From the NCBI GenBank assembly GCA_029259545.1, contig JAPHEE010000001.1, positions 40,474 to 104,473 on the forward strand: a stretch of 64,000 nt of DNA, read 5' to 3'. The notes beneath the pieces were generated by a model, which saw only the letters and a program-made list of their open reading frames with translations, made no database searches and was not told where the DNA came from. This DNA is from Candidatus Alkanophaga volatiphilum. Lineage in GTDB: Archaea > Halobacteriota > Syntropharchaeia > Alkanophagales > B39-G2. The translations under genes were made by a program, and so were the position numbers. Of this stretch, positions 23,906 through 40,109 are shown piece after piece (within the stretch, counting starts at the first letter, position 1; every line of letters starts with the position of its first letter).

Positions 23906-25929
23906 CTTTCAATCCCACCTTGGTCTGATTTCTTCTCCTCAGGTGCGACCCGAATGATGTCGCCTATTTCTACCTTTCAATCCCACCTTGGTCTGATTTC
24001 TTCTTGCGAGTCCACGAGCGCTTGAACGAGTTCCGCAGGCTTTCAATCCCACCTTGGTCTGATTTCTTCGAGAACTACGTGCCGGCGTGGCTCGCTCTTG
24101 CGAACGCTTTCAATCCCACCTTGGTCTGATTTCTTCTTCTCCATCAGCTTCAAGGTCGAGGAGGACGAGCTCCTTTCAATCCCACCTTGGTCTGATTTCT
24201 TCGTCACTCCAGTTGCGAATTCCCCACGCGTGGAGCGGCTTTCAATCCCACCTTGGTCTGATTTCTTCCAAGCGCTATCGAGGACACAGAATCCCTTTGC
24301 CAGACTTTCAATCCCACCTTGGTCTGATTTCTTCTCGTTTACAGAGTTGCGAAGATCGAAGCGTGCTTGACTTTCAATCCCACCTTGGTCTGATTTCTTC
24401 GCGAAACGCTCAAGGAGGTCGCAAAGAAGTTCGGCGCTTTCAATCCCACCTTGGTCTGATTTCTTCGAAACGTGGAGAGGGCGTGCCACGTCAGGGCTGC
24501 GTCTTTCAATCCCACCTTGGTCTGATTTCTTCGGAATTACGAGGTTTCGGACTTGCTCGTCGGCATTCAAGCTTTCAATCCCACCTTGGTCTGATTTCTT
24601 CTCGCTCAGCGGCACGACGACACATCCGTCGTTCTCCCTGCTTTCAATCCCACCTTGGTCTGATTTCTTCGCATCGTCGGCGTGCACAGAGTGCCGTATC
24701 TGAACTTCTTTCAATCCCACCTTGGTCTGATTTCTTCCGTGATGGAGGACTACGAAAATGCAAGAATGCTCCCTTTCAATCCCACCTTGGTCTGATTTCT
24801 TCTACGATAGGGAGATGAAATCTCACCTACCATGACATTCTTTCAATCCCACCTTGGTCTGATTTCTTCTTATTCGTAAACATATCCTTCTTTGACCGCT
24901 ACTTTGCTTTCAATCCCACCTTGGTCTGATTTCTTCACTTTGACCCAACCCCTAAATCAACTGCACTTGACACTTTCAATCCCACCTTGGTCTGATTTCT
25001 TCATGATTGCATCCTCCGCCTGTCTTTCAGCATGATCACTTTCAATCCCACCTTGGTCTGATTTCTTCGAGGTGAGTGTGTTGGACAAGCTTGTCATCAT
25101 TCTCTTTCAATCCCACCTTGGTCTGATTTCTTCGAGTTCCTTCTGGGTAGGGTGAAAGCCGTAAAACACCCTTTCAATCCCACCTTGGTCTGATTTCTTC
25201 GGCGACTGGAGCCTCGTCGAAGTTCAGGAGCAGGTCGCTTTCAATCCCACCTTGGTCTGATTTCTTCTGGCGGAGCTGGCGGCAGTATGCTTCTATAACG
25301 TCCTTTCAATCCCACCTTGGTCTGATTTCTTCAAGGCTATCCCGAAGATGCCGAGCAGGATTCTTGCCGCTTTCAATCCCACCTTGGTCTGATTTCTTCT
25401 GGCTCGCCGACATGCCGCCAAGTGATAACCGATGCCTTTCAATCCCACCTTGGTCTGATTTCTTCCGGACCGAAACGCTCATGCTGATGCTTGACCGCAC
25501 CTTTCAATCCCACCTTGGTCTGATTTCTTCAAGCTTTACTAACGTATCTGCCGACACTAACCGACTCTTTCAATCCCACCTTGGTCTGATTTCTTCCTGC
25601 AAACAAGCAAGGCAGACACGATGTAGTTGCACCTTTCAATCCCACCTTGGTCTGATTTCTTCTCTTGTTGCGGTTTTACTGCTTTTCTCTCTAATCGTCT
25701 TTCAATCCCACCTTGGTCTGATTTCTTCGGACAAGCGGGTGCTTGCGTTCCTGCTGGCTCACGACTTTCAATCCCACCTTGGTCTGATTTCTTCACAAAA
25801 TAAGAGAGAACTTGTGGCGGTTAGACGAGAAAGCTTTCAATCCCACCTTGGTCTGATTTCTTCCCTCACAACCCTCGAAACCGTCAATCTAATTACGCTC
25901 TTTCAATCCCACCTTGGTCTGATTTCTTC
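23906..25929 (-). CRISPR. CRISPR array, 31 identical 30-nt repeats, 30 spacers of 35-39 nt
   Basis: The repeat CTTTCAATCCCACCTTGGTCTGATTTCTTC was located by hand at 31 positions. Its reverse complement ends in ATTGAAAG, the canonical 8-nt crRNA 5' handle. Transcription is therefore inferred on the minus strand, with the leader at the 25930 side. Confidence 0.95.
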
Positions 25930-26045
25930 AGGCGCGTTTCTTTTGCTCGTGCTTGGTTTGCGGTTATGCGGGGGCTCCATATAAAGCTTTTCACTCGCAT
26001 CGTCGGTTCCCGCCCCCATATATAAAGAACCTAGACTCTCTTCGC
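25930..26045 (-). promoter_or_regulatory. CRISPR leader with two TATA-like boxes
   Basis: The minus strand reads GGTTCTTTATATATGG ... AAGCTTTATATGG ... GCGCCT and then the first repeat. It is homologous to 62935-63041. Confidence 0.6.
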
Positions 26046-26502
26046 ACGGCTTTCTCTGCGTTTACGGGCGTCACACCGAGTTTTCCACGACTTCAGCGAG
26101 TTCGTGGGGGGGAGCGTCCGGTGCGACTCCGCCCGCCAGCCTTAAACCGTCGCTCTGGGCATTTTTCACACCGCCCCGCAAGTTCGTATTACCGGCGTGA
26201 CGATCCCAGATGCCATCTTGGCGGGTTTCCCGCAAATTCGCCGGTTTTGCGTCCGCCCCTTTGATAAACAGTAGTTTTACGCGGGGATTAAAGTATGAGG
26301 TTTCGTCGTCGGTATTGCAGAGCTCATGAGAGGGGCAAGAAACACATTTCCAGCTTAGACTTCTACTTCGGCGGTGATCCGCATAAGGATGAAAATCTGG
26401 GGAAGTGGAAAACAGACCAAGGTTAGCTCCCTAGCTGTAGACTGCCAAAGCGACGGGACGTTGCGCTGAAGAGCGGCTCTTGCCACACCTGTCCTGAGGA
26501 CT

Positions 26503-26977
26503 TTACGCCCCCTCAACGCTGATAGTTTCAGGCGTCACCATCCACAGCAGCGACCATTTCCCCTCTTCGCCTCGCTCCAAGCAAACGACGCCTGCTATTT
26601 TAAACTTTATTGGCTCTACGTCGTCCTTTCCGGTAAGAAGGAGCTTGCGAGCTTGCTGAGGTGCGGGAGGTGTCCCACGAGCATTATATCCTCGTCGGCA
26701 TTTCGCAACCGTCCAGCCCAGACCTTCAGGTCAGCTAGGGCTCCAGTGTATCGGTTTGCTCCACGCCTTTCGGAGGCTTTAGCGCGTCAGCCATGATTTC
26801 AGCGGTCTGTACTGCTCTCAATTTCCCACTGTGCAAAATCCGCTCGACACGAACAAATTTTGAAACGTAATTAGCTACCTTCTTTGCATCTTCCTTCCCT
26901 TTGTCGGTCAGCGGGCGGGCAGGGTCTTCCGCCCCGCTCCTCGCCTCCCCATGTTGAGCCGAATACACCCGCACCAT
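26503..26977 (-). pseudogene. SixA-like phosphohistidine phosphatase with two frameshifts
   Basis: MVRVYSAQHGEA...LEP stops at 26735. A second frame gives ADLKVW...IMLVGHLPHLSKLAS. A third frame gives LLLTGKDDVEPIKFKIAGVVCLERGEEGKWSLLWMVTPE. Confidence 0.55.
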
Positions 26978-27002
26978 GGTTTTAGATCGGTTCAGCAGCC
27001 AT

Positions 27003-27887
27003 TTATCGCTTGAGTGAGTCAAGAACACGCTCGTAAAGCTTCAAGAACTCAGCTCTCCACTCTTCCAGCTCTGAAGCGAAAGGCACCCCCTTCGAATACA
27101 GCCTTGCGATTTCAGGGTCGAGAGGTATTTTCATCAGGATTTCAATGTCTTCCTGCGTGCAGAATTCCTCTATTAGGGCATCACCCTCACCGCTCTTGTT
27201 AAGAACGACGGCAAACGGGATTCCCAGCTTATTTAGCGTATCTACCGCCAGCTTCAGGTCATATAAGCCGAAAGGCGTCGGCTCTGTGACAAGGATGCAG
27301 AAATCACTGCCGAGGACTGAGAAGATCATGGGGCATGCCGTGCCGGGCGGGGCGTCCACGATTATGGCGTGCTGAACGGACGCCGCCTTCCGCACAGCCT
27401 TTATTACAGGCACGGGCATAGGCTCACCGACGTTAAGTTCGCCGTAGGCGACGAAAATCTCTCCGCCATTGACGTGAGCAAGCCCCTTCTTCACGACACC
27501 CACCGCCCGCTCGTCCTCGATGATTGCGTTCCGCTCGCATACGATGGCGCAGCCGCCGCAGCCGTGGCAGAGCTGTGGGAAGACGAGGACGTCGCCGCTC
27601 ACGTTGCGCTCTGGCACGGGACGCACCACGAAAAGCGCATTGAACTCGCAAAACTTTGAGCATGCGCCGCAGAAGTCGCAACGTTCCTTTAAAATCCTCG
27701 GCGTCTTTATGCAGACTGTTTTGGTCTCAATAATTTCGGGCTTTAAGAAAAGGGCAACATTCGGCTCTTCTACGTCACAGTCAAGTAACGCAACGTTCTC
27801 GCCGGCTGAAGAAAGCGAGAGTGCAAGATTAACAGCGACCGTAGTTTTCCCAGTACCTCCCTTCCCGCTCGCCACTGAGATTATCAT
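27003..27887 (-). CDS. MinD/CooC-superfamily P-loop ATPase with inserted 4Fe-4S ferredoxin domain (COG1149-like)
   Basis: SGKGGTGKTT Walker A plus CDFCGACSKFC and CHGCGGCAIVC clusters. Confidence 0.8.
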   Translation of the reverse strand: MIISVASGKGGTGKTTVAVNLALSLSSAGENVALLDCDVEEPNVALFLKPEIIETKTVCIKTPRILKERCDFCGACSKFCEFNALFVVRPVPERNVSGDVLVFPQLCHGCGGCAIVCERNAIIEDERAVGVVKKGLAHVNGGEIFVAYGELNVGEPMPVPVIKAVRKAASVQHAIIVDAPPGTACPMIFSVLGSDFCILVTEPTPFGLYDLKLAVDTLNKLGIPFAVVLNKSGEGDALIEEFCTQEDIEILMKIPLDPEIARLYSKGVPFASELEEWRAEFLKLYERVLDSLKR

Positions 27888-28351
27888 CAGAAGTGCCAGA
27901 AGTGGCGCTCATTCCCGTGTCCGTGCCCATGCCTATGCTCCCTGCAGGTGTCCATTTCAGAAGCTTCCTTAAGCATTCTGGTTTGGAAGTCCCGTATGGC
28001 GTCCCTGACGGTGCCACTTGCGCCGACATAAACCTCGATGCCAAATTGTCGGAACATCGCAAGTGCTTTCGGACCTAAACCTTTACATAAGACTACAGAG
28101 ACGCCTTTCTCTGCTAGAATCTCGGGCGGGTATCCGGAGCCGCCGAAATGCTCGCTGTAATTTTGCAGGACTTCCACGTCGCCTGTTTCTAGATCCACAA
28201 TGGTGAACGTCGGCGCCCTGCCGAAGTGCTCGCAGACGAGGTCGTCGAGTCCCCCTCTGTATGTAGGGACTGCGACTCTGAACTTCGGGCGGTACGCTCT
28301 CGCCATAAGCTCTTGCAATTTCCTTTTGCGAATTGCCTCAAGTTCGTCCAT
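27887..28351 (-). CDS. NifX/NifB-C-terminal-like (dinitrogenase FeMo-cofactor-binding fold) protein with His-rich tail
   Basis: HFGRAPTFTIVDLETG motif. The C-terminal sequence is REHRHGHGHGNERH. Confidence 0.7.
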   Translation of the reverse strand: MDELEAIRKRKLQELMARAYRPKFRVAVPTYRGGLDDLVCEHFGRAPTFTIVDLETGDVEVLQNYSEHFGGSGYPPEILAEKGVSVVLCKGLGPKALAMFRQFGIEVYVGASGTVRDAIRDFQTRMLKEASEMDTCREHRHGHGHGNERHFWHF

Positions 28352-28386
28352 AGCTCTAAAATAAGAAGGGGGAAAATAAAAAAAAG

Positions 28387-28764
28387 TTACTTTTGAAGCT
28401 CTTCAAGTCGCTTCTTTATCTGCGACAGCGCTTCTTCAAGGGATTTCGCCTGCGCCTCGAGCATTGCGATTTCTTGCTCCCTGCTCATCGGCGGTGGTGA
28501 CCAGAGCGGCTGCGGTGGCGTTGCGGTCGGTGGTGTTGCCGTTGCGGTTGGTGGTGTTGTCGGGGGCGTCGTAGGCGCTGGGAACTGCGTCTGCAGGTAA
28601 GAGAGAAACTGCGGAAGCTGTCCAGTTTGCAGGATGTAGCCTGCCGCTGGCGGAAGTCCTGTTGGGCTTCTGCCGAGCCAGCCCGGCGAGAAGCCAAACC
28701 GCAGCCAGCCTGGAAGTCCAGTCAGTCTAAACATCCATCTCCAGCCGTAGCCCATCCGCATCAC
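28387..28764 (-). CDS. DUF5320-like protein (aromatic/Gly head, Pro/Thr linker, C-terminal coiled coil)
   Basis: MGYGWRWMFRL...TPPTTPPTATATPP...SREQEIAMLEAQAKSLEEALSQIKKRLEELQK. An AAGGAGGTG SD lies upstream. The real start may be ATG 28755. Confidence 0.6.
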   Translation of the reverse strand: MMRMGYGWRWMFRLTGLPGWLRFGFSPGWLGRSPTGLPPAAGYILQTGQLPQFLSYLQTQFPAPTTPPTTPPTATATPPTATPPQPLWSPPPMSREQEIAMLEAQAKSLEEALSQIKKRLEELQK

Positions 28765-28794
28765 CTCCTTTCAGTTTAGTTTATCTTGCTTGGC

Positions 28795-28980
28795 TTACCA
28801 GTACCACCATGGCGTCCACATCCACGCCCACGGCAGGCGGTACGGGTAGTACGCCGCCCACCAGCGCCAGCCGTAGTAGTAGGGCGTCCACCAGTACGCC
28901 CACCAGGGCCACCAGTAGGGCATCCACCACGGGAAGAGGAACCAGCCGAGGGGTCCGAGCCCGAACGGCACCTCCACCAC
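28795..28980 (-). CDS. Trp/Tyr-rich micro-protein (61 aa, 18 W, 9 Y)
   Basis: GGGAGGTGG SD and a GTG start 5 nt after the upstream stop. No coiled-coil tail. Coding status is inferred from operon packing only. Confidence 0.5.
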   Translation of the reverse strand: MVEVPFGLGPLGWFLFPWWMPYWWPWWAYWWTPYYYGWRWWAAYYPYRLPWAWMWTPWWYW

Positions 28981-28984
28981 CTCC

Positions 28985-29197
28985 CTACTCTTTTAACTCC
29001 TTAAGCCTCCTCTCGATCTCCTCCAGTCTCGCTTCGAGCGCTGCCTTCTCGCTTTCCAGCATTCGTATCTCGTCCTCCTTGCTCAACGCCCCTGGGGGAC
29101 CCCACGTCCACAGCCACGTCCACGGCTGCCACCACGGCTGCCACCACGACGAGAACCACCACGGCGATGCCCACCACCATGGAAGCCACGGTGGCAT
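28985..29197 (-). CDS. Trp-rich head + DUF5320-like coiled-coil tail micro-protein (70 aa)
   Basis: 14 W in the first 32 residues, then SKEDEIRMLESEKAALEARLEEIERRLKELKE. A TAGGAGGTGG SD lies 7 nt upstream of the ATG. Confidence 0.6.
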   Translation of the reverse strand: MPPWLPWWWASPWWFSSWWQPWWQPWTWLWTWGPPGALSKEDEIRMLESEKAALEARLEEIERRLKELKE

Positions 29198-29210
29198 TTT
29201 TAACCACCTC

Positions 29211-29402
29211 CTACACCGCCCTAACCATGGGGGTTCCGCACTTCGGGCAGGTCATCTGCCGGCACGGCACGCCACGCTGGTGCGGGATGCGATGCCCACA
29301 GTTCGGGCACTCGCACTCGCCGCTGGGTCCACGACCCATACCGCCCCAGCCTCCGCCGCCTCTGCCAGCACCCCTGCCCATGCCTGCGCCACGTCCTGCC
29401 AT
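29211..29402 (-). CDS. G/R-rich head + zinc-ribbon micro-protein (63 aa)
   Basis: MAGRGAGMGRGAGRGGGGWGGMGRG followed by CPNCG...CPKCG. A GGAGGTGG SD is present, and the ATG lies 1 nt after the upstream stop. Confidence 0.55.
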   Translation of the reverse strand: MAGRGAGMGRGAGRGGGGWGGMGRGPSGECECPNCGHRIPHQRGVPCRQMTCPKCGTPMVRAV

Positions 29403-29403
29403 G

Positions 29404-29571
29404 TTACCACCTCCAGTCTACAATACGGCGTCCCCGTCCTTTTCGCCTTACGGCTGCGAAGGCTGCAGTCGCATCTCGCATCCAGCGGCGCGGCGCCGGC
29501 ATCAGACCTGCCCACATGCCGCCATATTGCCCGCGCCTCCTGCACCTGCCTCTTCCCATATTTCCTCGCAT
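29404..29571 (-). CDS. possible G/R-rich micro-protein (55 aa, below ORF-track cutoff)
   Basis: Hand-translated as MRGNMGRGRCRRRGQYGGMWAGLMPAPRRW.... The SD is weak (GAAAGGG). It fills the gap between neighbouring ORFs exactly. Confidence 0.3.
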   Translation of the reverse strand: MRGNMGRGRCRRRGQYGGMWAGLMPAPRRWMRDATAAFAAVRRKGRGRRIVDWRW

Positions 29572-29581
29572 CCCTTTCACA

Positions 29582-29746
29582 TTACCACCACCAGTAGGTC
29601 CACCACGCTGAGGGCATCCACGGCGTTATCGGACCGTAAATGCCGGTCCACCACCAGCGCGGCAACCACGGGAACCACCGGCAGAACGGGAATGGGTTGC
29701 CACGCCAGCCCCAACCTCGCCACCAACCTCTACCCCATGGGGGCAT
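29582..29746 (-). CDS. Trp-rich micro-protein (54 aa, 16 W; below ORF-track cutoff)
   Basis: Hand-translated as MPPWGRGWWRGWGWRGNPFPFCRWFPWLPRWWWTGIYGPITPWMPSAWWTYWWW. An AAGGAGGTGG SD overlaps the upstream stop. Confidence 0.5.
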   Translation of the reverse strand: MPPWGRGWWRGWGWRGNPFPFCRWFPWLPRWWWTGIYGPITPWMPSAWWTYWWW

Positions 29747-29758
29747 GACACCACCTCC

Positions 29759-30415
29759 TTAGCTCTTTAACCTTCTTATCATGTCCTTAACTTCTTTCAA
29801 CTCTTTTTCAAGCCTCTCAATCCGCTCTCTCAGCTCTTGCATGTCAGTTTGCGGCGGCTCGCCGCTCGCCATCGCGGTGGCGCGCCATCCCCCTCTGCGC
29901 CAGCCCTTGCCGCCCCCTCCAAAGCCTGGACCGAAAGCTGGCGGCACCGGCGACGTGAGTGGTGGCATCCAAGTTTGTGGCGGTGTGGGCGGCTGAGCTG
30001 ATGGCGTTTTTATCGTCGCTGATTGCGGCATTGAAGGCGGCGACGCGCCGAAGCTCATGCCGAAGTGCGGGGCGACTGTGGCACCGCCCGCCTCCCTGAG
30101 CTCGCCACGCTTGAACATCTCGACGGCGTCCTTGACGGTGCCGTGCGCGCCTGTAAAAACTCTTATGCCCGCCGCTGAGAGCGTTTGAAAGGCGTTGGGT
30201 CCGACATTTCCGGTGATGACAGCTTCGACGCCGAGACTCACTACGGTCTGCGCAGCCTGAATGCCGGCGCCGCCGGGGGCGTCGGCGCTCTCGTTACGGA
30301 CGGCTTCAAACTCCATGGTCTCAGAGTCCACAATCACGAAATACTGGCAGCGTCCGAACCTTGGATCGACTTGCGCGTCCAGACCATCCGAAGTTGCGGT
30401 CACGCACACCCTCAC
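29759..30415 (-). CDS. NifX-like domain fused to a DUF5320-like Pro/Gly linker and coiled-coil tail
   Basis: GTG 30415 gives MRVCVTATSDG...RFGRCQYFVIVD. The C-terminus is GFGGGGKGWRRGGWR...DMQELRERIERLEKELKEVKDMIRRLKS. Alternative ATG starts exist at 30445 and upstream. Confidence 0.65.
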   Translation of the reverse strand: MRVCVTATSDGLDAQVDPRFGRCQYFVIVDSETMEFEAVRNESADAPGGAGIQAAQTVVSLGVEAVITGNVGPNAFQTLSAAGIRVFTGAHGTVKDAVEMFKRGELREAGGATVAPHFGMSFGASPPSMPQSATIKTPSAQPPTPPQTWMPPLTSPVPPAFGPGFGGGGKGWRRGGWRATAMASGEPPQTDMQELRERIERLEKELKEVKDMIRRLKS

Positions 30416-30731
30416 GTTTCCCCCCACTAATGAATATAAATTCATAACATAAAAAGGTGACGCAAGGCGATGCTTGTGTTGCATACAAGCTTTTATGCCA
30501 GACCTTGCGCGCGCCTCGATGGCGGTCCCTTGCCGGGGCTGCATGAGAACAGCAGCTCTTGTCGTGCCGCTCGCCGTGCCAGCTCTGATCTTCTTTGGCA
30601 TCGCCGCTGCGGGATTATATATTCTCATTCAAACCGTCGTGGACGCAGCGGCGCCCGACGGTAGATGGTCGTCGGGGACGGCATTTATACGAGAAGGTCC
30701 AGAAAACCGCATTGTCCAAGCTGTGAGCCCT

Positions 30732-30831
30732 GAAGACGTCTCAGCAGACCTCGTGACCACTACAGTTAGTCCAAGAGGGGGTGCTGAAAAGAGAAAAGGG
30801 AAGACGTCTCAGCAGACCTCGTGACCACTAC
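30732..30831 (+). repeat. CRISPR-like mini-array: 2 x 32-nt direct repeat with a 36-nt spacer
   Basis: GAAGACGTCTCAGCAGACCTCGTGACCACTAC occurs at 30732-30763 and 30800-30831. The 68-nt period equals the period of the main array. An ATTTATAC TATA-like box lies ~45 nt upstream. Confidence 0.5.
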
Positions 30832-31049
30832 GGCTTCACCGTGAAAGGCACCTCCTTGCTTGGTCTTTCTGACCTGCCTCCGCCTAGGCGAGGTTCCCGA
30901 CACGGGACGGGCGGGCTTGCGGAGACGCATCGGCTCGGTCAGGAGCCGTCCGGTCAGCATTTAGCTGACCGAATCATCGAAAAATTAGGAGAGGGAATAA
31001 AATGTTTCGGGGGCTTCCTCCCCCTAGAGGCTTCCAGCCCGCAAGGAGT

Positions 31050-31250
31050 GTGACCTCCTCCCTCGCTCAGCAAGGGGCTTCCCGGGGGAGGTTGGGAGGT
31101 GTGCCGTGCCTCCGGCTCGGCACGCAGCCCCGCCGAAGGATATACCCACGGCTCGTTCCGAACTCACATTATCTTCGGAAAATTAACTGCCTCCAACCCC
31201 CTAATCATCCCGCCCCCTCAGGACGAGCCCTCTTAGCGACTGAAGGTAAA
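31050..31250 (+). mobile_element. MITE-like structured interspersed repeat, copy B (internally shortened)
   Basis: It shares the 5' end GTGACCTCCTCCCTCGCTCAGCAAGGGGCTTCC, the core GGATATACCCACGGC and the 3' end CTCTTAGCGACTGAAGGTAAA. Confidence 0.65.
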
Positions 31251-31534
31251 TCGATAGCTAGCCCCACAAAATGAACGAGGGCTAACCCGCATCTCTTAAG
31301 AATTATCGTCTCCCGCACAAGCCTCTGGTCGAAATCTTAACGGGCAAGGAAGCAGGCGACTTCAATGCTTATTTAGCATCACGTTGAGCAGCGGCGGTGT
31401 CGCAGACCGGTAATATCCCAGCGAATCCCCTATTGACGACACCATTGACGCCTCCCCGCAGGCTTCGAAAGTACCGCCCCTCCATTGCGGCTCCCTGCCT
31501 CCAGAGCTCATTTGGAGCAGAGTAGTGTATTACC

Positions 31535-31670
31535 TTTACAAAATGTCGCTACGAAAGCTCCCCACTTCAGTAGGGAGATGAAGTAGGGGTGGGTGGGAAA
31601 AGTTTTATACTTAAAACCTGAGGCGGGGAGGCTTAAAGTGAAGCCCCGCCTCCGGTCGGGAGAGGCTCAC
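31535..31670 (-). repeat. MITE-like repeat, partial copy I (3' module)
   Basis: The reverse complement reads AAGTATAAAACTTTTCCCACCCACCCCTACTTCATCTCCCTACTGAAGTGGGGAGCTTTCGTAGCGACATTTTGTAAA. This matches the 3' modules of copies A and C. Confidence 0.5.
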
Positions 31671-31800
31671 GATCCAGAGGCGCTCCGATTCATAAATGAA
31701 AACGCAGGTACTGACGATTGGTGGCCATAGGCGTCTTCAGCGCTTATTTTATTATCCCAAGCTCCAGCCTCGCCTCCAACCTTCCTCAGAACACCTTAAG

Positions 31801-32670
31801 TTACACTCTTAGTGTCGCTTCCAAGCACTCCCACACCCTTTTCATCTCAATGGCAGCTGGCGAGCGTGGCGAGCATTCCACGACCGGCTTCCCCATCGCC
31901 AGCGCCCGCATCACCGCCACGTCGTACGGAACCCTGCCGACCACCTCCACGCCCTCCGCCTCGCAGAACCTTTCCATCTCGACCGCCATTTCCGCATTCA
32001 AGTCGTATCTGTTTATGCAGACGAATGGGCGTACGTTGAAGTGTCGAGCCAGCCGGAGTACACGCTCCAAGTCGTGAAGCCCGCTGACCGTAGGCTCCGT
32101 CACGATCAATGCGGCGTCGACGCCGCTGAGTGTGGAGATGACTGGACACCCGATGCCCGGCGGCCCATCTATTAGTATCAAGCGGCAAGCCTCCCGCTCT
32201 GCGACGCTCAATGCGTTTTGCCGCACCACCGTCACGAGCTTTCCGGAATTCTCCTCCGCCGCATTTAGAACGGCGTGCGACAAGAAACCGTACTTCGTCC
32301 TTGAGAGGAACACATAACCCGAAACCTTTTCTTGCAGCGTTATTGCTTTTTCAGGGCACACGACAACGCAGACGCCGCACCCCTCACATAAAATTTCGTC
32401 CACCTCTCCCTTCTCTATCGCATCAAATCTACAAAACTCCTCACATCTCCCGCAGGCGGTGCATTTTTCTCCGTCCACCACCGCCACCTTTGCGCCCCGA
32501 AACTCCTCCCGTCTTAGAACTTCGGGCTTCAGAATGAGATGCAAGTCCGGGGCGTCAACGTCGCAGTCTGCCAGCACTTTGCGCTCAGCCAACGCTGCAA
32601 ACACCGCTACTATTGAAGTTTTGCCGGTGCCGCCCTTCCCGCTGACCACCGCAAGCTGCCGTATGCTCAT
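31801..32670 (-). CDS. MinD/CooC-superfamily P-loop ATPase with inserted ferredoxin domain, second paralogue
   Basis: SGKGGTGKTS Walker A plus CTACGRCEEFC and CEGCGVCVVVCP. Confidence 0.8.
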   Translation of the reverse strand: MSIRQLAVVSGKGGTGKTSIVAVFAALAERKVLADCDVDAPDLHLILKPEVLRREEFRGAKVAVVDGEKCTACGRCEEFCRFDAIEKGEVDEILCEGCGVCVVVCPEKAITLQEKVSGYVFLSRTKYGFLSHAVLNAAEENSGKLVTVVRQNALSVAEREACRLILIDGPPGIGCPVISTLSGVDAALIVTEPTVSGLHDLERVLRLARHFNVRPFVCINRYDLNAEMAVEMERFCEAEGVEVVGRVPYDVAVMRALAMGKPVVECSPRSPAAIEMKRVWECLEATLRV

Positions 32671-32705
32671 CTGAATTTATTTGTTGTCAGTCTTAATAAG
32701 AGGCG

Positions 32706-33668
32706 ATGAAAATTGTGGTGACCGGCGGTGCAGGCTTCATTGGATCGCATGTCGTAGATCGACTTATGGCGAGTGGTGCCGATGTCGTGGTTCTGGACAA
32801 TCTGAGCTCAGGGAGCTTGAAGTTCATAGAGCCGCATCTCCGAAGGGAGAATTTCGAGTTTCACAAGGTGGATCTGGCGACTTCCGCCTCCGACATCACG
32901 CCCCTCTTAGATGGTGCGGACGAGGTCTGGCATTTGGCAGCAAACCCTGACGTGCGTGTCGGCGTCGAGCGTCCCGAGGTGCACTTCAAGCATAACATCG
33001 TTGCGACTTACAACGTGCTGGAGGCGATGCGTCGGAACGATGTCCGTCGCATCGTCTTTACGAGCACCTCCACGGTCTACGGCGAAGCTACACAGCTCCC
33101 GACGCCTGAGGACTACGGACCGCTTATACCTATCTCTCTTTACGGCGCTTCGAAGCTCGCATGCGAAGCCCTGATTTCGGCGTACGCTCACACCTTCGAC
33201 ATGCAGGCGTGGATATATCGTTTTGCGAACGTTGTAGGGCGTCGGAGCACGCATGGCGTCATTTTCGATTTTATCAAAAAGCTGCAAGCAAACCCGAGGG
33301 AGTTAGAAATTCTAGGCGATGGCAACCAGACAAAATCCTATATTTACATCGACGACTGCGTCGAAGCCATGTTTTTCGGACTTAAAGCCTCTGAGGTCGT
33401 GAACGTCCTGAACATCGGCACTGAAGACCAAGTGACGGTGCGGCGGATCGCTGAAATCGTGTGCGAAGAACTGGGGCTTGTCGGTGGTAAGATGCCAGAG
33501 TTCCGGTTCACGGGCGGGCGGCGTGGCTGGCGAGGTGATGTTCCCCTCATGCTTTTGGACATCTCAAAGTTGAAGAACTTGGGCTGGCGTCCAAGGCATA
33601 ATTCGGAAGAGGCGGTGCGGCGGGCGACAAGGGACCTTCTTGAGGAGTTGAAACTCCAGCGGCGTTAA
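32706..33668 (+). CDS. NAD-dependent sugar epimerase/dehydratase (UDP-glucose 4-epimerase-like)
   Basis: GGAGFIGSH Rossmann motif and a YGASK catalytic motif. Confidence 0.8.
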   Translation: MKIVVTGGAGFIGSHVVDRLMASGADVVVLDNLSSGSLKFIEPHLRRENFEFHKVDLATSASDITPLLDGADEVWHLAANPDVRVGVERPEVHFKHNIVATYNVLEAMRRNDVRRIVFTSTSTVYGEATQLPTPEDYGPLIPISLYGASKLACEALISAYAHTFDMQAWIYRFANVVGRRSTHGVIFDFIKKLQANPRELEILGDGNQTKSYIYIDDCVEAMFFGLKASEVVNVLNIGTEDQVTVRRIAEIVCEELGLVGGKMPEFRFTGGRRGWRGDVPLMLLDISKLKNLGWRPRHNSEEAVRRATRDLLEELKLQRR

Positions 33669-33698
33669 CAAACATTTACTCTGTCGTCCCAGCCTCTT

Positions 33699-34063
33699 TC
33701 AGAAGTGGACGTCGTATGTCCGCCCGTTGGCTTCCAGCACGAGCTTTACTTTCGTGGGAAATGTCGTGTCCTCAGGTACGTGTATTGTTTCCTGCTCCTC
33801 GTGCACCTCCCCCCTTTTCAGCTCAAATTCTTTTTCCTTCACGAGTACGCTCCCCAAATATCTTTAGTTTGTTTCGTAGGCTTGTTCTCAAAGCACTGCA
33901 CGCCATAGACAAAGGACACGTTGTCTCCCGCCTTAACATAATTGGAGTACGACTCGGGGCGTAAGTAAAGGGCGGAGTAGGATTCCTGATAGGTCGCCCA
34001 GATAAGATAAGCAGCGACAGCAACCCCTATTATGCAGGCGATGAGCATGCTTGATGAGTACAT
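33699..34063 (-). pseudogene. small N-terminally anchored protein with one frameshift
   Basis: MYSSSMLIACIIGVAVAAYLIW...KDIWGAYS stops at 33839. The next frame continues VLVKEKEFELKRGEVHEEQETIHVPEDTTFPTKVKLVLEANGRTYDVHF. Confidence 0.4.
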
Positions 34064-34199
34064 CCATTTCGCTCTCCTCGTTGCCTGTGGCTGTTGTGCT
34101 CTTCATATGGCTTAGGTCTTAGTACCGAATAATAAAACGCGCAGCCACCGAGTTCAGAGGTTCTACACCCCGCTGCATGCAAGTGAAAAAGTAGGGTGG

Positions 34200-34348
34200 G
34201 GTGTGGCTCAGGACGAACCGCTCCCCTCCGCCGTCACGACGCCCTGCCCACACCGTATGGCTCGCTTCAATTCTCAGCTCCGCTCACATATAAAACCTTT
34301 TCCACTCCCCGATCCCCTCAAGGGGCTTTCTTAGCGACTTTCTGTAAA
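34200..34348 (+). repeat. MITE-like repeat, partial copy F (same subtype as G)
   Basis: Nearly identical to 37530-37664: CTCCCCTCCGCCGTCACGACGCCCTGCCCACACCGTATGGCTCGCTTCAATTCTCAGCTCCGCTCACATATAAAACC...CTTTCTTAGCGACTTTCTGTAAA. Confidence 0.65.
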
Positions 34349-34574
34349 AGTTTTTGGCTTCCGATGACATTTTGATGACGTATCGGAAGCCGTCAATCTC
34401 CATCACTCCGTTCGGAGCGACCTCATAGAAGGCATTGGGGCAGGCGGGAGCCCATCTGAGATCCGCCCACGCACGCCCATCAGCCCCTCGCCTCGCGCCC
34501 CTCCTCTCCTGTCGTCCTACCCGCCTCACCGACTCATGCGAAGGTCATCAAAACTCGGAGCTGTCGGCGAGCCC

Positions 34575-34811
34575 CTAATAGAGAGTTATATACTTGGATA
34601 TCTTGTCTGTGGAATCCACAACCCCGTACACTTCGAACCCTTCGCTTATTAGCACCTGCAAAGCCGTAGAGATTCCCCCTTCAAAGGATATTTGAACCGA
34701 GGCATAGTTTTGGACCATCTCTCTGAAACCAGGCATGTTCTTAAGCAGCTCGTAGAGTTTCAGCCATCGTTGTTCGTCCAACTTGCCTTCTAGGATTATA
34801 ACCTTGCCCAC
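34575..34811 (-). CDS. hypothetical protein
   Basis: 78 aa with a GTG start. No family recognised. Confidence 0.4.
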   Translation of the reverse strand: MGKVIILEGKLDEQRWLKLYELLKNMPGFREMVQNYASVQISFEGGISTALQVLISEGFEVYGVVDSTDKISKYITLY

Positions 34812-34825
34812 AAGACCACCAGAGT

Positions 34826-36057
34826 TTATTTGGCGACCTCCTCGTAAATACTTATCGTGTCTCTCGCTACTTTATCCCATGTAAACTGCGACAAAACTCT
34901 ATTTCTCGCGTTCTGTCCCATCTTCCTCCGCAATTCTTCATCCTTCAGGATTAAAACGACGAACTTCGCAATGTCGTTCGGATCGTCTGGATTTATGTGC
35001 GCACCGCAGATGCCGTCACCGCTCGGGATGACCTGCTCTCTAAGCCCCGACGTGCCCCTGGCGCCGACGACCACGGGCTTGGCCATCGCCATCGCCTCCG
35101 TGCACACTATGCCGAACGGCTCATTGATGGGAAGACGGCGACATCGCACGCCGCATAAAAGAGAATCCTTTCCGCCTCACTCACGTATCTGTTTACTAGT
35201 ATGACTCTGTTTGCTAGTTGCAGGCTTGAAATAAGGTGCCTCAGCAGGCCTTCTTGCTCGCCCACGCCGAGGATTACGAGCTTTGCGTTTGGCACCTCTT
35301 CAAGTATCATGGGCATTGCTCGCATGAGTGAGTCGGCGCCCTTTACCCAGGTGAGCCTGCCGACGAAAAGTATCATGAACTCATCGTCGCCGATGCCAAG
35401 ATGTGCTCTCAAGCCGGCTACTTCGTCTTTTTTCACCCGCGTGGGGTTGTATTTCTCAGGATCGATGCCGTTGTAAACAACTCTTATCTTCGACTCATCA
35501 TAGCCCAGCCTGACGAGCTCGTCCCGCATAGCATAGCTGACTGTGATGATGATCGTTGCGAACTCACCTGCGAGCTTTTCTATGGCTTTTATTGTTGAGG
35601 AGCCGTCGCCCGCCCTGCCTTGCTCTGTCGAGTGGACGTGGAAGATAAAAGGCTTTTTCAGAATCTCAGAGGCGATCATGCCTGCAGGCGCCGAGAGCCA
35701 GTCATGCGAGACTATCACGTCGAAACTCCGTTTTTCTTGCTCTACGAGCACGTTCACGAGCTTTGATGCCGAGAGAATGTTGTAGCAGAGCGTCTCTGCG
35801 AAGAACCGTCGCCCTTCGGGAGGCAACTTCGGACATCCTCGGGAACGATGAACGGTAAAATTTCGGCAAGATCCACAAGAATAGGCCTGTGGACCTCGAT
35901 GCCGTCCCAAACGTCCCTTGTCGGCGCCCTGCCGACGTTCCGTGAAAAAACGGTGACATCGTGTCCCAGCCTCACAAGCTTCCTCGTCATCTCCATAGCA
36001 TAAGTCCCCAAGCCGCCCCTGAAGTGGGAATTCATCTACGAAGTGTGCTATTTTCAT
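34826..36057 (-). pseudogene. GT-B (family 1/4-like) glycosyltransferase with about three frameshifts
   Basis: The frames read MKIAHFVDEFPLQG, GGLGTYAMEMTRKLVRLGHDVTVFS..., ...HVHSTEQGR...VFPS and NEPFGIVCTEAMAMAKPVVV.... The FPS/NEPFG junction lacks one A in a short A run. Confidence 0.65.
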
Positions 36058-36103
36058 CTACCTCACACTAAACTATTGACTTGGTTTAGTTTAATGTAGG
36101 GGG

Positions 36104-37486
36104 ATGTGTGGCGACAGCAAGCTTCCACGGGTACTCTTTGCGGGCACCGCTTCGGGGGTTGGGAAGACGCTTATTTGTGCGGGCTTGATCCTAGCGTTGC
36201 GGCGGCGTGGTTACCGCGTTCAGCCGTTCAAAGTAGGTCCTGATTACATAGATCCTGGATACCATACAAAAGCGGCAGGCGTGCCTTGTCGTAACCTCGA
36301 CAGTTTCCTGATGAATGAGGCAACCATCACAGAGATCTTCGTGAAACACGCAGCGAACGCCGATATATCGATTATCGAGGGTGTTAGAGGCCTTTATGAA
36401 GGTATCTCAGTGGACAGTGATGAAGGAAGCACTGCGCACATCGCTAAAATCCTGAAAACGCCTGTAATTTTGATCATTAACGCGAGGAGTATAACGAAAA
36501 GTGCCGCCGCTATCGTTTTAGGTTTCAAGAGCCTTGACCCAAATATTAAAATAGGAGGCGTGATCCTAAACAGCGTTTTCAATGAGGAACATCGCCGCAA
36601 GCTGGCAAGAGCGATCGAAAATTATGCAAAGGTGCCCGTTCTGGGAGCACTCCCGAGGAGTGATGCATTAAGTGTCGGAGAGAGGCATTTGGGCTTGCTT
36701 ACAGCTCTGGAGAACGTCATTGACCTGCGGCGTGTTGCGGACTTCGTAGAAGAACATATAGCTGTCGAAAAGATCGTGGAGCTTGCAGAGGTGGCGCCGC
36801 CGCTCTCGTCATCGGGCAATATCCACTCGTTACGAGCTTCGTCGACGTGCAACGGAGTACGGCTGGCAGTTGCCTACGACAATGCGTTTAACTTTTATTA
36901 TCAGGACTCGCTCGACGTGCTGAGAAGCTTAGGCTGCCGCATCCTCTTTTTCAGCCCGATGCAGGATGCGGCGTTGCCGGAGTGCGACGGTCTTTATCTC
37001 GGCGGCGGCTATCCTGAGGTCTTTGCGGCGGAGCTTTCTAAGAATAAAAGCATGCTACGGAGCGTTAAAAGGGCGGCGGAGGATGAAATGCCGGTGTATG
37101 CGGAGTGCGGCGGCTTGATATATCTCTCAAGGGCATTTGAGGGGGAGGGGCGTTTCGAATTTGTCGGCTTCCTTCCGTGCGAGGTGCGGATGCGGCGTCG
37201 CCACATAGGTTACACCGTGAACCAGATAATCTCAAGGACTATTTTAGGTGACAGTGGCATCCTGCGGGGGCACGAATTCCATTACACTGAGTGTGAGGTG
37301 TCTGACGACGTGCAGTTTGCATACAAAATGCTAAGAGGTAGCGGTATGGTCTCAAGGGGTGGAGAAAATTACGATGGGATCGTTCAAGGCGCGACGCTTG
37401 CCGCGTACACGCATCTTCATTTCGCAGCATGTCGCAAGGCTGCCGAAAACTTCGTTGCACGCTTGAGGTCATTTAGTAAGAAGTAA
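36104..37486 (+). CDS. cbiA: cobyrinate / Ni-sirohydrochlorin a,c-diamide synthase (CbiA/CfbB family)
   Basis: GTASGVGKT P-loop, FKVGPDYIDPGYH motif, and a C-terminal glutamine amidotransferase domain (YAECGG). Confidence 0.8.
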   Translation: MCGDSKLPRVLFAGTASGVGKTLICAGLILALRRRGYRVQPFKVGPDYIDPGYHTKAAGVPCRNLDSFLMNEATITEIFVKHAANADISIIEGVRGLYEGISVDSDEGSTAHIAKILKTPVILIINARSITKSAAAIVLGFKSLDPNIKIGGVILNSVFNEEHRRKLARAIENYAKVPVLGALPRSDALSVGERHLGLLTALENVIDLRRVADFVEEHIAVEKIVELAEVAPPLSSSGNIHSLRASSTCNGVRLAVAYDNAFNFYYQDSLDVLRSLGCRILFFSPMQDAALPECDGLYLGGGYPEVFAAELSKNKSMLRSVKRAAEDEMPVYAECGGLIYLSRAFEGEGRFEFVGFLPCEVRMRRRHIGYTVNQIISRTILGDSGILRGHEFHYTECEVSDDVQFAYKMLRGSGMVSRGGENYDGIVQGATLAAYTHLHFAACRKAAENFVARLRSFSKK

Positions 37487-37664
37487 CCTCCTGAGGGGCT
37501 TCCACGTGAAGCTGGGGGGCGTGCGGCACGAAGCTGCGCTCCCCTCCGGCGTCACGACGCCCTGCCCACACCGTATAGCTCGCTTCAATTCTCAGCTCCG
37601 CTCACATATAAAACCTTTTCACTCCCCAATCCCCTCAAGGGGTTTTCTTAGCGACTTTCTGTAA
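37485..37664 (+). repeat. MITE-like repeat, copy G (short subtype)
   Basis: It starts at the cbiA stop codon (TAACCTCCTGAGGGGCTTCCACGTGAAGC...). It carries the GTGCGGC/GCTGCGC hairpin and the 3' end TTTCTTAGCGACTTTCTGTAA. Confidence 0.6.
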
Positions 37665-37724
37665 GCCTGCGTTGTGATCGAATCGACAGCTGCCGCCTGT
37701 AGCAACGTCCATGCCGTAGAGCTT

Positions 37725-37977
37725 TTTACCTTCAGTCGCTAAGAAGGCTCCGCCCGTAAGGGCGGAGATGAATTAGGGGAGGAGGGTGGGGGCTGGTAGG
37801 AGGTAGTTAGTTTTTTATACTCTGAAGACAATGTAGACCCGAAGTGAGGCCGTGGGTATACCCTGCGGTCAGGGGCTGCGTGCTCAGCCCGAAGGGGAGT
37901 GCAGGTTCATCCTGCACGCTCCCCAACCTCCCATGCTTCCGGTGGGAGCCCCTTGCTGAGCGAGGGGAGGAGATCAC
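37725..37977 (-). mobile_element. MITE-like structured interspersed repeat, copy C (full length)
   Basis: Its reverse complement is colinear with copy A over the whole length. Substitutions are paired within the hairpin stems. Confidence 0.7.
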
Positions 37978-38000
37978 CTTCCACTCTTAAACGGTGAAGC

Positions 38001-38528
38001 ATGGATTTCCGAGGGCACTGCCTCATCGCAACGCTCACTTTTGGACCGTTCGCCCTAGCTGCTATTTTGTTCTCATTAAAACCCTCCACGCTGATCCTCT
38101 CGTTTCTGGCATGCATTGTCGGCGCAAACTTGCCCGACCTCGATATAAAAACGTCAAAGCCGCATAGGTATGCCGTCCGGATAACCACCACCGCAACCAT
38201 AGTCTTCCTCGCCATGCTTGCGGCATCAACGGCACTGTGTTCAAATGCCAAAAGTTTGTTCCTTAAACTCACCGTAATTTCTGCTGTGGCGCTGCTCGCA
38301 GTACTCTTCATAAGTAGGTTGCCACATCGCGGTCCAACGCACGGTGTCCTTGGCATCTTAGCTTATGGCTTCCTCCTCCTGCTGGTAGCGTTCCTTTTTG
38401 AGTTGCCGCCGTCGGCTGCTCTTCTCATAACGCTTGCTGGCATCACAGGTTACACCTCTCATATCCTCGCCGACGAAGCCTCAACGTTTTTCAAGAAGAA
38501 AAAGAAACGAAGGAAGAGAAGGAAATGA
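38001..38528 (+). CDS. YdjM/DUF457-like membrane-bound metal-dependent hydrolase with poly-Lys/Arg tail
   Basis: Motifs LPDLD, HRGPTHG and HILAD in a polytopic membrane protein. The C-terminus is FFKKKKKRRKRRK. Confidence 0.55.
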   Translation: MDFRGHCLIATLTFGPFALAAILFSLKPSTLILSFLACIVGANLPDLDIKTSKPHRYAVRITTTATIVFLAMLAASTALCSNAKSLFLKLTVISAVALLAVLFISRLPHRGPTHGVLGILAYGFLLLLVAFLFELPPSAALLITLAGITGYTSHILADEASTFFKKKKKRRKRRK

Positions 38529-39568
38529 GCTTGTGGATCGAAAAATACAGACCACGGACGCTTTCCGGGATTGTAGGGCAAGACGCCGCCGTGAGGGTTG
38601 GCACGAGATTTTTAGAAAGTGGAAGCATACCCAACCTTTTACTTTGGGGCCCGAGAGGTGTAGGGAAGTTCTCGTTCGCAAGAGCTTTGGCTTTGGAGCT
38701 TCACGGCGACCTTGAGAATTTTATCAGTCTCGACGCCTCCAACATTTTCGAGATCGGCAAAAAATATTTGGCGGAGGAGAGGCGCTTCCGTCTGTTCTAT
38801 GAAGAGCGTGCTTCGGTCATTGACACTTTCAAGCGAATCATCCGGGAGTTCACGGCGCTCGCCCCGATAAATGCCGACTTCAAAATCATTTTCTTCAGCA
38901 ATGCAGAAGCGCTGACGCTCGATGCTCAGCACGCGCTCCGCAGAACCATGGAAAGATATAGCAAGACTTGTAGGTTTGTTTTCTCGACGACGAAGCCCGC
39001 AAAAATCATCATGCCGCTGCGTTCGAGATGTCTCATGCTGCACTTTCGGAAACTGAGCGACGAACACGTCGAAAGCATAGTGAGAAGGGTGGCAAGTGGC
39101 GAGCGTTTGAAGCTTTCAGCTGATGCATTGAGACTGATAAAAGCGAGGGCTGATGGAAATGCATTTGTAGCAATAAGCCTACTGCAGGCAGCAGCCGCGC
39201 TCTCAGCGGCTCCTGCGGGCGGAGAACGACAGTATGTAAGCGGCGATGCCGTGCGTCTTGCAATAGAAAAGAGCTACGGGGCGGACGCTGCTGAGATCGA
39301 AGCGCTGCTTTCGCATGCGCTCGAAGGCAAGCACGAAGCATTACGAAAAAAATTCCGCTCCCTCCTTGACAATAGGGGCGTGAGCTGTCGGGAGTTGCTT
39401 GAGTGCTTGCAGGACGCCGTGAAGAGAAGAGCGGCTGCGGGGCGCATACCCGTGGAAAAAGCTACTCATATCCTCCTGAAGATAAGTGATGTAGACGCTC
39501 GCCTCTGTGAATGCTTAAATGCTGAAATCCACGTCGAAGAAGCCTTAGCAAGTTTTTCAGCGCTGTGA
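38525..39568 (+). CDS. replication factor C small-subunit-like AAA+ protein with degenerate ATPase motifs
   Basis: LWIEKYRPRTLSGIVGQ and LRSRC (SRC motif) are conserved. Walker A is GPRGVGKFS, Walker B is FFSNAEAL (canonical DEAD) and sensor 2 is GNAFVAIS. There is an ATGA overlap with the upstream gene. Confidence 0.7.
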   Translation: MSLWIEKYRPRTLSGIVGQDAAVRVGTRFLESGSIPNLLLWGPRGVGKFSFARALALELHGDLENFISLDASNIFEIGKKYLAEERRFRLFYEERASVIDTFKRIIREFTALAPINADFKIIFFSNAEALTLDAQHALRRTMERYSKTCRFVFSTTKPAKIIMPLRSRCLMLHFRKLSDEHVESIVRRVASGERLKLSADALRLIKARADGNAFVAISLLQAAAALSAAPAGGERQYVSGDAVRLAIEKSYGADAAEIEALLSHALEGKHEALRKKFRSLLDNRGVSCRELLECLQDAVKRRAAAGRIPVEKATHILLKISDVDARLCECLNAEIHVEEALASFSAL

Positions 39569-39870
39569 CGCTCGCCTTTGGCGAGGGCTCCGCAAGGGGC
39601 ACCTCGCCCCCGCCGCCTCTCAGCGGTCGGCGTCATCGGGCGTCAGCCTCTGATAGGAGGTCAGCTTCTCCTCGATGAATCGAGAAGCTTGCCTCACAAT
39701 GTCCCGCCGGGACGTTCATCAGCCAATCAGGACGGCTGACTTCGCCCCTCATCGGGCTGGAAAGCTGGCAAAGCCGCTCCAGCCCACGAGAACAAACGCA
39801 TTCAACATTATAAATAATTTCCGCCAATTCCTCCCATGGTTAAACCATGGGCTTCCTTGGCGGTGGGGGT

Positions 39871-40109
39871 GTGAACTACCCTTCGCTTCGCAAGGGGCTG
39901 CGTGGGGAGTTTGGTCGTCGCCTGCCCGCAGGCGGTCACGCCGCCACTACCCGTTATCCTCACGGCTCACGGGCTACTTCAACCAGCCCCTACGGCTGCC
40001 CAGCCTTACGGCTGTTACGTCGTTACACCATACAACTTCAAAGTATTTAACTTACCACCCCCTCCCCTGTATCCCCATTATGGGGTCTTGCAAGCAACGG
40101 GATGATAAA
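39871..40109 (+). mobile_element. MITE-like structured interspersed repeat, copy E (diverged subtype shared with D)
   Basis: 5' end GTGAACTACCCTTCGCTTCGCAAGGGGC. Hairpin CGCCTGC/GCAGGCG. 3' end CCCCTGTATCCCCATTATGGGGTCTTGCAAGCAACGGGATGATAAA. Confidence 0.55.

Follow-up and report, generated by a model that had tools for sequence, protein, structure and literature searches.

Two identical 32-nt repeats that flank a 36-nt segment in the genome of Candidatus Alkanophaga volatiphilum, within an analysed stretch of 64,000 nucleotides (the window, whose numbering is used throughout), are probably the scar of an off-target (ectopic) Cas1-Cas2 spacer integration, that is, a 'neo-CRISPR' unit. Judged by the aligned alleles of other strains, the unit is a derived state confined to one strain, in which 36 nt were inserted and 32 bp of the target duplicated, and not a conserved element. 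We infer that Cas1-Cas2 catalysed this insertion and, regarded as such, the unit adds a new natural case to a process that is known but has seldom been documented, with unusually clean before-and-after evidence and a gene-disrupting companion in the same genome.

The two copies of the 32-mer GAAGACGTCTCAGCAGACCTCGTGACCACTAC (30732-30763 and 30800-30831) are 100% identical, start 68 nt apart and are separated by 36 nt, just as a sequence-only reading of this DNA had described. The features of the locus itself are the following.

30543..30824, plus strand: orphan small ORF with one predicted membrane helix and with the insertion in its 3′ end (from translations in six assemblies)
30683..30693, plus strand: TATA-like box GCATTTATACG, 41 nt upstream of the unit, unchanged in all strains that lack the insertion
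30729..30736, plus strand: insertion point CCT/GAAGA (the slash marks the junction), which mimics in register the leader-repeat junction of the resident arrays (from leader comparison)
30732..30763, plus strand: copy 1 of the duplicated 32-bp target (the 'neo-repeat'), an exact repeat; the 32-mer is single-copy in assemblies L011/L018, L017, L016 and L019
30764..30799, plus strand: 36-nt spacer-like insert AGTTAGTCCAAGAGGGGGTGCTGAAAAGAGAAAAGG, missing from the four single-copy assemblies
30800..30831, plus strand: copy 2 of the duplicated 32-bp target, identical to copy 1

A search of the window with the 32-mer at up to three mismatches returns these two matches only (0 are expected from shuffled sequence), and the whole 1.85-Mb assembly holds two copies, both at this locus; the 36-nt insert has no other genome match longer than 14 nt. 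The same repeat-insert-repeat structure is found in three more independent assemblies (L012-L014, at ~88-420x coverage), and therefore the unit is not an assembly artefact. It occupies part of a 1.35-kb gap whose bordering genes, both on the minus strand, encode a NifX-like protein (Nitro_FeMo-Co domain) and a MinD/ParA-type ATPase with ferredoxin domains; no cas or toxin gene was found adjoining it. At gathering thresholds, Rfam recognizes only the SRP RNA and one tRNA in the whole window, and a permissive scan of 30400-31900 gives only a weak HgcC match and a chance-level match to CRISPR-DR20. The latter (30642-30681, minus strand, 22.6 bits, E = 0.083, against a gathering score of 42) lies ~50 nt upstream of the unit and is weak and probably due to chance.

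The case for an insertion is carried by the alleles of other strains, for which the locus was recovered from further public assemblies through exact matches to the flanking proteins and then aligned. When JGI metagenomes were scanned with the 32-mer core, a single contig came back, Ga0209411_100052 (L011); it is 96-98.6% identical to window positions 26080-40059, and its one 32-mer is immediately succeeded by the sequence found 3′ of window copy 2. Four conspecific assemblies other than those of the window's strain are likewise single-copy and free of the 36-nt insert (L018, which equals L011, L017, L016 and L019), and the single-copy assemblies represent three haplotypes, ~97.5% identical (96-98.6% identity over 13.5 kb). 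The continuation 3′ of copy 2, GGCTTCACC..., is the same as that 3′ of the single copy in these strains, and the extra 68 nt, i.e. 36 nt of unrelated sequence and the second 32-mer, are found only in the window's strain. Since the conspecific alleles are single-copy and insert-free, it is the window's strain that gained 36 nt and a 32-bp target duplication. The three haplotypes carry SNP alleles of the 32-mer (GAAGACGTC, GAAGATGTC and GAAGACATC), and despite this variation between strains the two copies in the window are identical. For the window locus taken alone, a deletion between the repeats in the other lineages may formally have produced the same pattern.

The TATA-like box, which the sequence-only reading had assigned to the unit as its own, is a real sequence feature, but its unchanged presence in strains without the insertion means that it does not belong to the unit; it is older than the insertion, was not brought in with it and can be called a putative promoter only.

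The insertion altered a predicted small ORF. Gene callers place an ORF of 107-116 aa across the site; the frame is conserved between strains from the ATG on, and a frame-breaking 2-nt indel lies upstream of that ATG. The ORF 30543-30824 is here treated as a putative gene only. Its ancestral form comprises ~77 aa with one hydrophobic helix, two strain SNPs inside the 32-mer are, in the ORF frame, synonymous (GAC to GAT) or conservative (Val to Ile), and the insertion changes the C-terminus from ...TTTASP to ...TTTVSPRGGAEKRKGKTSQQTS, each followed by a stop codon. Neither homologues in 40 related genomes nor a Pfam match were found for this ORF, and membership of the 32-mer in a conserved protein-coding gene, considered earlier, thus falls away.

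The rest of the gap is mostly dispersed repeat DNA, with the following elements.

30868-31053: MITE-like family A, ~20 copies in the genome
31049-31250: MITE-like family B, ~50 copies in the genome
31535-31670: two shorter repeat families

Copies of families A and B are intergenic with respect to TnpB genes at the threshold used. The stem-loop that had been noticed downstream of the unit does exist, at 30952-30970, but it is part of family A and hence of a sequence present in ~20 copies; the weak HgcC match (30856-30950, minus strand, E = 0.006) falls within the same element. Families A and B are polymorphic between strains (window 30863-31290 and ~31590): L016 and L019 lack both and have ~190 nt of different sequence in their place. 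In L017, an extra ~48-nt insertion stands within the region of the family C/D repeats.

The dimensions of the unit can be compared with those of the CRISPR arrays of the same genome, one of which lies in the window together with its leader.

23906..25929, minus strand: resident CRISPR array of 31 identical 30-nt repeats GAAGAAATCAGACCAAGGTGGGATTGAAAG and 30 spacers of 35-39 nt
25930..26030, minus strand: leader of the resident array, ending ...AAGAAACGCGCCT at the first repeat, with a TTTATAT box 49 nt upstream of repeat 1

Genome-wide, seven arrays of this repeat family hold ~420 repeats of 30 nt (five arrays) or 31 nt (two arrays) and are type I-D-like. The 31-nt variant, with an extra A at position 4 and an identical leader, characterizes the two large arrays on C14 and C51. 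Array sequence in the assembly (G000) is spread over contigs C1, C14, C20, C33, C51, C70, C72 and C9:1-773, the last of which starts with a second repeat type of ~37 nt (...AAGGATTGAAAC). Several arrays lie ~97 nt from contig ends, which points to assembly breaks in the repeated leaders. In another strain, the array orthologous to that of the window (L048 and L049, compared with window 25930-26030) has the same leader and only 4-6 spacers, none of which is among the window's 30; the same leader without common spacers indicates that adaptation was going on while the strains diverged. The array in L049 contains an internal duplication, its spacers 3-4 recurring as spacers 5-6.

The insert is 36 nt long, which is also the modal spacer length of the resident array (15 of 30 spacers), and the added 68 nt fall within the range of array periods over the genome (63-75, mode 67, with 66-68 in 279 of 413). 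The statement that 68 nt is the period of the main array needs some correction: it lies within that array's range of 65-69, but the mode is 66, and 68 is therefore not 'the' period. All five readable leaders end in ...GCCT and are followed by the repeat start GAA(A)GAAATC, and the insertion site reads ...CCCT/GAAGAC, so that over positions -3 to +5 the junction CCT/GAAGA is matched in register at 8 of 8 positions, a match found at a frequency of 5.2e-5 of genome positions. Over the broader span of -5 to +10 the match is 10 of 15 (1.1e-3 of genome positions). The site has G1 and C32 at its borders, and C at -3 and -2. A longer likeness to the leader of the window array was also considered upstream of the site (AACCGCA..CCAAGC..GAGC) and was rejected as chance, the positions involved not being conserved in other leaders.

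Apart from the junction, the neo-repeat is simply the sequence of its locus: GAAGA, TC and CAGACC are all that it has in common with the true repeat (15 of 38 positions match in register), and it ends in ...GTGACCACTAC, without the ATTGAAAG tag end. The earlier reading had correctly seen that the handle is missing and had listed GAAGA and CAGACC as the only shared words; both are shared (as is TC), but GAAGA together with the three nucleotides upstream of it constitutes the leader-repeat junction and is more meaningful than had been supposed. Since the neo-repeat lacks the ATTGAAAG tag, Cas6 is not expected to process it into a crRNA that could be used. In all likelihood the unit is now inert, and the changed C-terminus of the orphan small ORF would be its sole visible effect.

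A genome-wide scan for exact direct repeats of period 50-90 found, outside the true arrays, one more unit of this kind (G000:C7:62496-62593, or L028 5497-5594). It consists of a 32-bp exact duplication, AGCCTTTTGGCATCGTTGCTTTGGAGGCGATG, and a 34-nt insert, AATGGCTCGAAGTACTTGACGACGTAGCCATATA, giving a sum of 66 nt, and lies inside a GT4 glycosyltransferase gene, in the region of the conserved EPFGIVALEAMA motif, where it creates a stop codon. The insertion is present in three assemblies of the window's strain, whereas the locus is single-copy in seven assemblies of other strains, in two of which the gene is intact (403-406 aa). With a conserved gene as the starting point, comparison of these alleles makes the C7 insertion the derived state, with an unambiguous direction of change. 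As the C7 insertion is derived too, the lineage of the window's strain took up segments of 34-36 nt at least twice, with 32 bp duplicated on each occasion, and the added lengths of 68 and 66 nt are among the commonest array periods. The C7 insert has 6-nt inverted ends (ATGGCT...AGCCAT), its site shows no resemblance to the leader-repeat junction and no TCAG anchor (see below), and the two inserts have no relationship with each other or with the rest of the genome. A third candidate (G000:C25:7217-7315, L029 ~3218-3316) is a 33-nt direct repeat with 2 mismatches, CTGTTT(T/C)AACTCGAT(T/C)ATTGTTACATGAACAAC, that encloses 33 nt (period 66) and lies upstream of a small HNH-like gene. On the opposite strand its repeat ends in ...GAGTT(G/A)AAACAG, resembling the end of a CRISPR repeat. 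The unit is known only from assemblies of the window's strain, which give it no direction of change, and it could be an earlier scar or what is left of a different type of repeat.

Neither of the two inserts yielded a protospacer in the genome, IMG/VR (searched with 20- to 26-mers), GTDB representatives or GenBank phages, where matches of 19 nt are at chance level. Missing protospacers are common for archaeal spacers and are uninformative.

The duplication is 32 bp long in both scars, while the resident repeats measure 30 or 31 nt. This would need (i) a shifted ruler, (ii) one or two nucleotides of chance identity or micro-homology at the ends of the insert or (iii) a different intrinsic stagger. 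By our own estimate, chance identity at the ends would inflate 30 bp to 32 in both events together with a probability of ~1%, and 31 bp to 32 with one of ~8%. As for the first option, the 30-nt repeat, its 31-nt variant and the 32-nt neo-repeat each contain an internal TCAG that lies 19 nt from the repeat end, a regularity noticed post hoc and with an anchor of 4 nt; it fits a molecular ruler anchored inside the repeat and may account for the 32 bp.

Under off-target integration, a Cas1-Cas2-type integrase loaded with spacer-length DNA would, in an ancestor of the window's strain, have attacked an ordinary site in intergenic or small-ORF sequence and not the first repeat of an array. The likely enzyme would be the adaptation module of the type I-D-like system behind the ~420-repeat arrays, and the site would have been chosen because it mimics the leader-repeat junction. 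Two strand transfers, staggered by about one repeat length, would then have left gaps, and their repair would have doubled the intervening 32 bp and so produced the order target copy, 36-nt insert, target copy.

The genes for such an enzyme are not evident in the available assembly. Specifically, a profile search for Cas1 (PF01867) gave no match in the window's MAG (88% complete), and cas2 was likewise not found in it; tblastn with the Cas proteins of a sister species recovered only cas6, a truncated cas10d and a 98-nt cas5 fragment. In that sister species, whose Cas1 is labelled by NCBI as Ca. Alkanophaga liquidiphilum, a near-identical repeat stands beside a type I-D operon with cas6, the large subunit, csc2, csc1, cas3′, cas4 and cas1. 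The operon of the window's genome is decayed or rearranged (G000:C10:126-4105, with the lone cas5 fragment at G000:C15:26389-26486): cas10d stops at residue 589 of ~882 and continues into unrelated sequence that is common to the start of C30. The retained I-D parts have 93-97% DNA identity to the sister species and cas6 only ~74%, and these mixed identities suggest a recent exchange of cas DNA between the two species. Homologues of the sister Cas1 at 71-72% identity were considered as candidates for the cas1 of this species, but they come from short contigs of other samples with a different repeat and are uninformative. The adaptation genes may be unassembled, may have been lost after the events or may have acted in trans; in a fragmented MAG that is 88% complete, their absence now does not imply that they were missing when the event took place.

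The CRISPR interpretation put forward earlier thus keeps its core, in that the CRISPR-like geometry is real and a CRISPR-related origin explains it best, but the specific forms suggested for it fail. That the unit is a genuine minimal array or the remnant of a second CRISPR type, with the two-repeat state ancestral and the spacer and one repeat lost from other strains by recombination, is very unlikely. The single-copy allele is just what recombination between direct repeats of 32 nt would leave, and the root of the tree is not fixed from the window locus alone; but the 32-mer, an ordinary local sequence that is single-copy and without a spacer in four conspecific assemblies, occurs nowhere else in the genome, in 185,579 GTDB representatives or in JGI metagenomes (bar the orthologous single-copy locus), so that the larger array that had been looked for elsewhere did not turn up. 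Such an ancestral array is also at odds with the identity of the window copies in the face of three SNP alleles between strains, with the single-copy state of L016 and L019, which lack the neighbouring MITEs and so look older at the locus, with the clearly derived state of the analogous C7 unit in a conserved gene, and with a repeat that has neither a ATTGAAAG-type tag nor an adjoining cas gene. A functional role, be it as a crRNA-like (CreA-like) regulatory RNA or as a pair of binding or recombination sites, is most unlikely: the TATA-like box 41 nt upstream and the two repeats around a spacer-length segment would suit a regulator, but the second copy and the insert are a strain-specific addition, missing from four conspecific assemblies and hence without conserved function, the neo-repeat has no processing or tag end, and complementarity of at least 15 nt to the insert is found nowhere in the genome. 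A repeat at the protein level within a conserved gene, or an artefact of assembly, is scarcely credible. Gene callers do put an ORF of 107-116 aa over the site, but the 68-nt period is not a multiple of 3 and places the copies in different frames of ORF 30474-30824, as had been recognized from the sequence, neither a homologue in 40 related genomes nor a Pfam match was found for the ORF, and an artefact would have had to recur in four independent high-coverage assemblies.

More weight is due to the idea that the CRISPR-like dimensions are coincidental and that a Cas1-independent process inserts ~34-36 nt with a fixed 32-bp duplication, unlikely as it is; the agent would be another integrase with a 32-bp stagger (perhaps borne by a mobile element) or an undescribed pathway of repair or templated insertion. 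It would agree with the duplication of exactly 32 bp, and not 30 or 31, in both scars, with a MAG in which no cas1 or cas2 was found and the I-D operon is truncated, and with the lack of a junction motif at the C7 site. However, it leaves the in-register junction match of the window (8 of 8, 5.2e-5) unexplained, the lengths of the insert and of the added DNA equal the spacer length and period of the resident arrays, and the inserts, being unrelated to each other and to the genome, are neither the footprints of one element nor local templated copies. We know of no transposase that gives a 32-bp target duplication with a 35-nt payload. A wider version, quite unlikely, takes the two, possibly three, scars with 32-33-bp duplications as the work of a distinct integrase of spacer-sized DNA, or of a Cas1-independent insertion process, active across the genome; a mobile-element-borne or unrecognized Cas1-like enzyme with its own 32-bp stagger would be the candidate. 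If this were true, CRISPR-like units would arise, and genes would be disrupted, independently of the resident adaptation module.

Off-target spacer integration has been shown clearly only in E. coli over-producing Cas1-Cas2, and the natural cases are few and circumstantial (bioRxiv 10.1101/148544). Here, an alkane-oxidising archaeon, Ca. Alkanophaga, preserves in its natural populations the alleles from both before and after two events, which give the integration sites to the exact base. If Cas1-Cas2 origin is true, (i) the event in the window, at a mimic of the leader-repeat junction, shows what the integrase reads in vivo and (ii) the C7 event, which knocks out a glycosyltransferase gene, shows that in nature CRISPR adaptation can cause mutations. 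A stagger of 32 bp where the repeat measures 30/31 nt, together with the TCAG regularity, amounts to a testable prediction on how the second cut is measured in type I-D-like systems, and the window case would document the birth of a new one-spacer 'array' from non-repeat DNA.

Several known systems invite comparison with the unit. Mini-CRISPR arrays of viruses and plasmids, solitary repeat units and the CreA of CreTA likewise surround a segment of spacer length with one or two repeats, at a distance from the main arrays. These systems carry recognizable copies of the host repeat with a tag or handle and are conserved functional elements; in CreA, specifically, the degenerate copies of the host repeat are conserved beside a toxin gene and the pseudo-spacer is partly complementary to the toxin promoter. 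Unlike these, the 'repeat' of the window is unrelated local sequence and the unit is strain-specific: it is not conserved between strains, shows no complementarity of 15 nt or more and has no adjoining cas or toxin gene. Casposons, which employ an integrase of the Cas1 family, are kilobases long and generate target duplications of ~14-15 bp; a target duplication is thus common to casposons and the window unit, whereas the payload in the window is 36 nt and the duplication 32 bp.

For types I-E, I-B and II-A, a molecular ruler sets the second integration site, such that bases added upstream of an internal anchor shift the second cut equally (Kim et al. 2019, PMC6895254). In keeping with such a ruler, the TCAG of the window is displaced by 2 nt away from the junction, relative to the true repeat, and the duplication exceeds the repeat length by 2 nt as well; the 31-nt repeat variant behaves alike. 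On the other side, the anchor was picked post hoc and is 4 nt only, and the C7 scar does not contain it. The Cas1-Cas2 of Pyrococcus furiosus integrates in vitro at off-target sites with G/C borders about one repeat apart and with a leader-repeat junction motif that includes C at -3 (Grainy et al. 2019, PMC6698737); in vitro, an archaeal Cas1-Cas2 reads the junction bases, the C at -3 and the G/C borders at cognate and off-target sites alike (PMC6698737). The window differs in its spacing (32 bp, against 30-31 bp in vitro) and in having no evident counterpart of the A-rich motif in the middle of the repeat, and agrees in the context of a 30-nt archaeal repeat ending in ATTGAAAG, in its borders G1 and C32 and in C at -3 and -2.

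That off-target Cas1-Cas2 integration generates neo-CRISPR loci is established in E. coli, and a few natural examples have been proposed (Nivala, Shipman & Church, Nat Microbiol 2018, to the extent that the work is represented in PMC6698737, PMC6607411, PMC7054753 and bioRxiv 10.1101/148544). Those loci arose in a type I-E system with over-expressed Cas1-Cas2, whereas the event in the window occurred naturally, in a thermophilic archaeon that is uncultured and has a type I-D-like system. For this event, empty-site alleles of conspecific strains are at hand, the duplicated 32 bp differ from the repeat length of 30/31 nt, and the integrase genes were not found in the assembly. In both, ordinary genomic DNA of about one repeat length is duplicated on either side of an insert as long as a spacer, at a site that resembles the native leader-repeat junction, and the outcome is a repeat-spacer-repeat unit outside any array.
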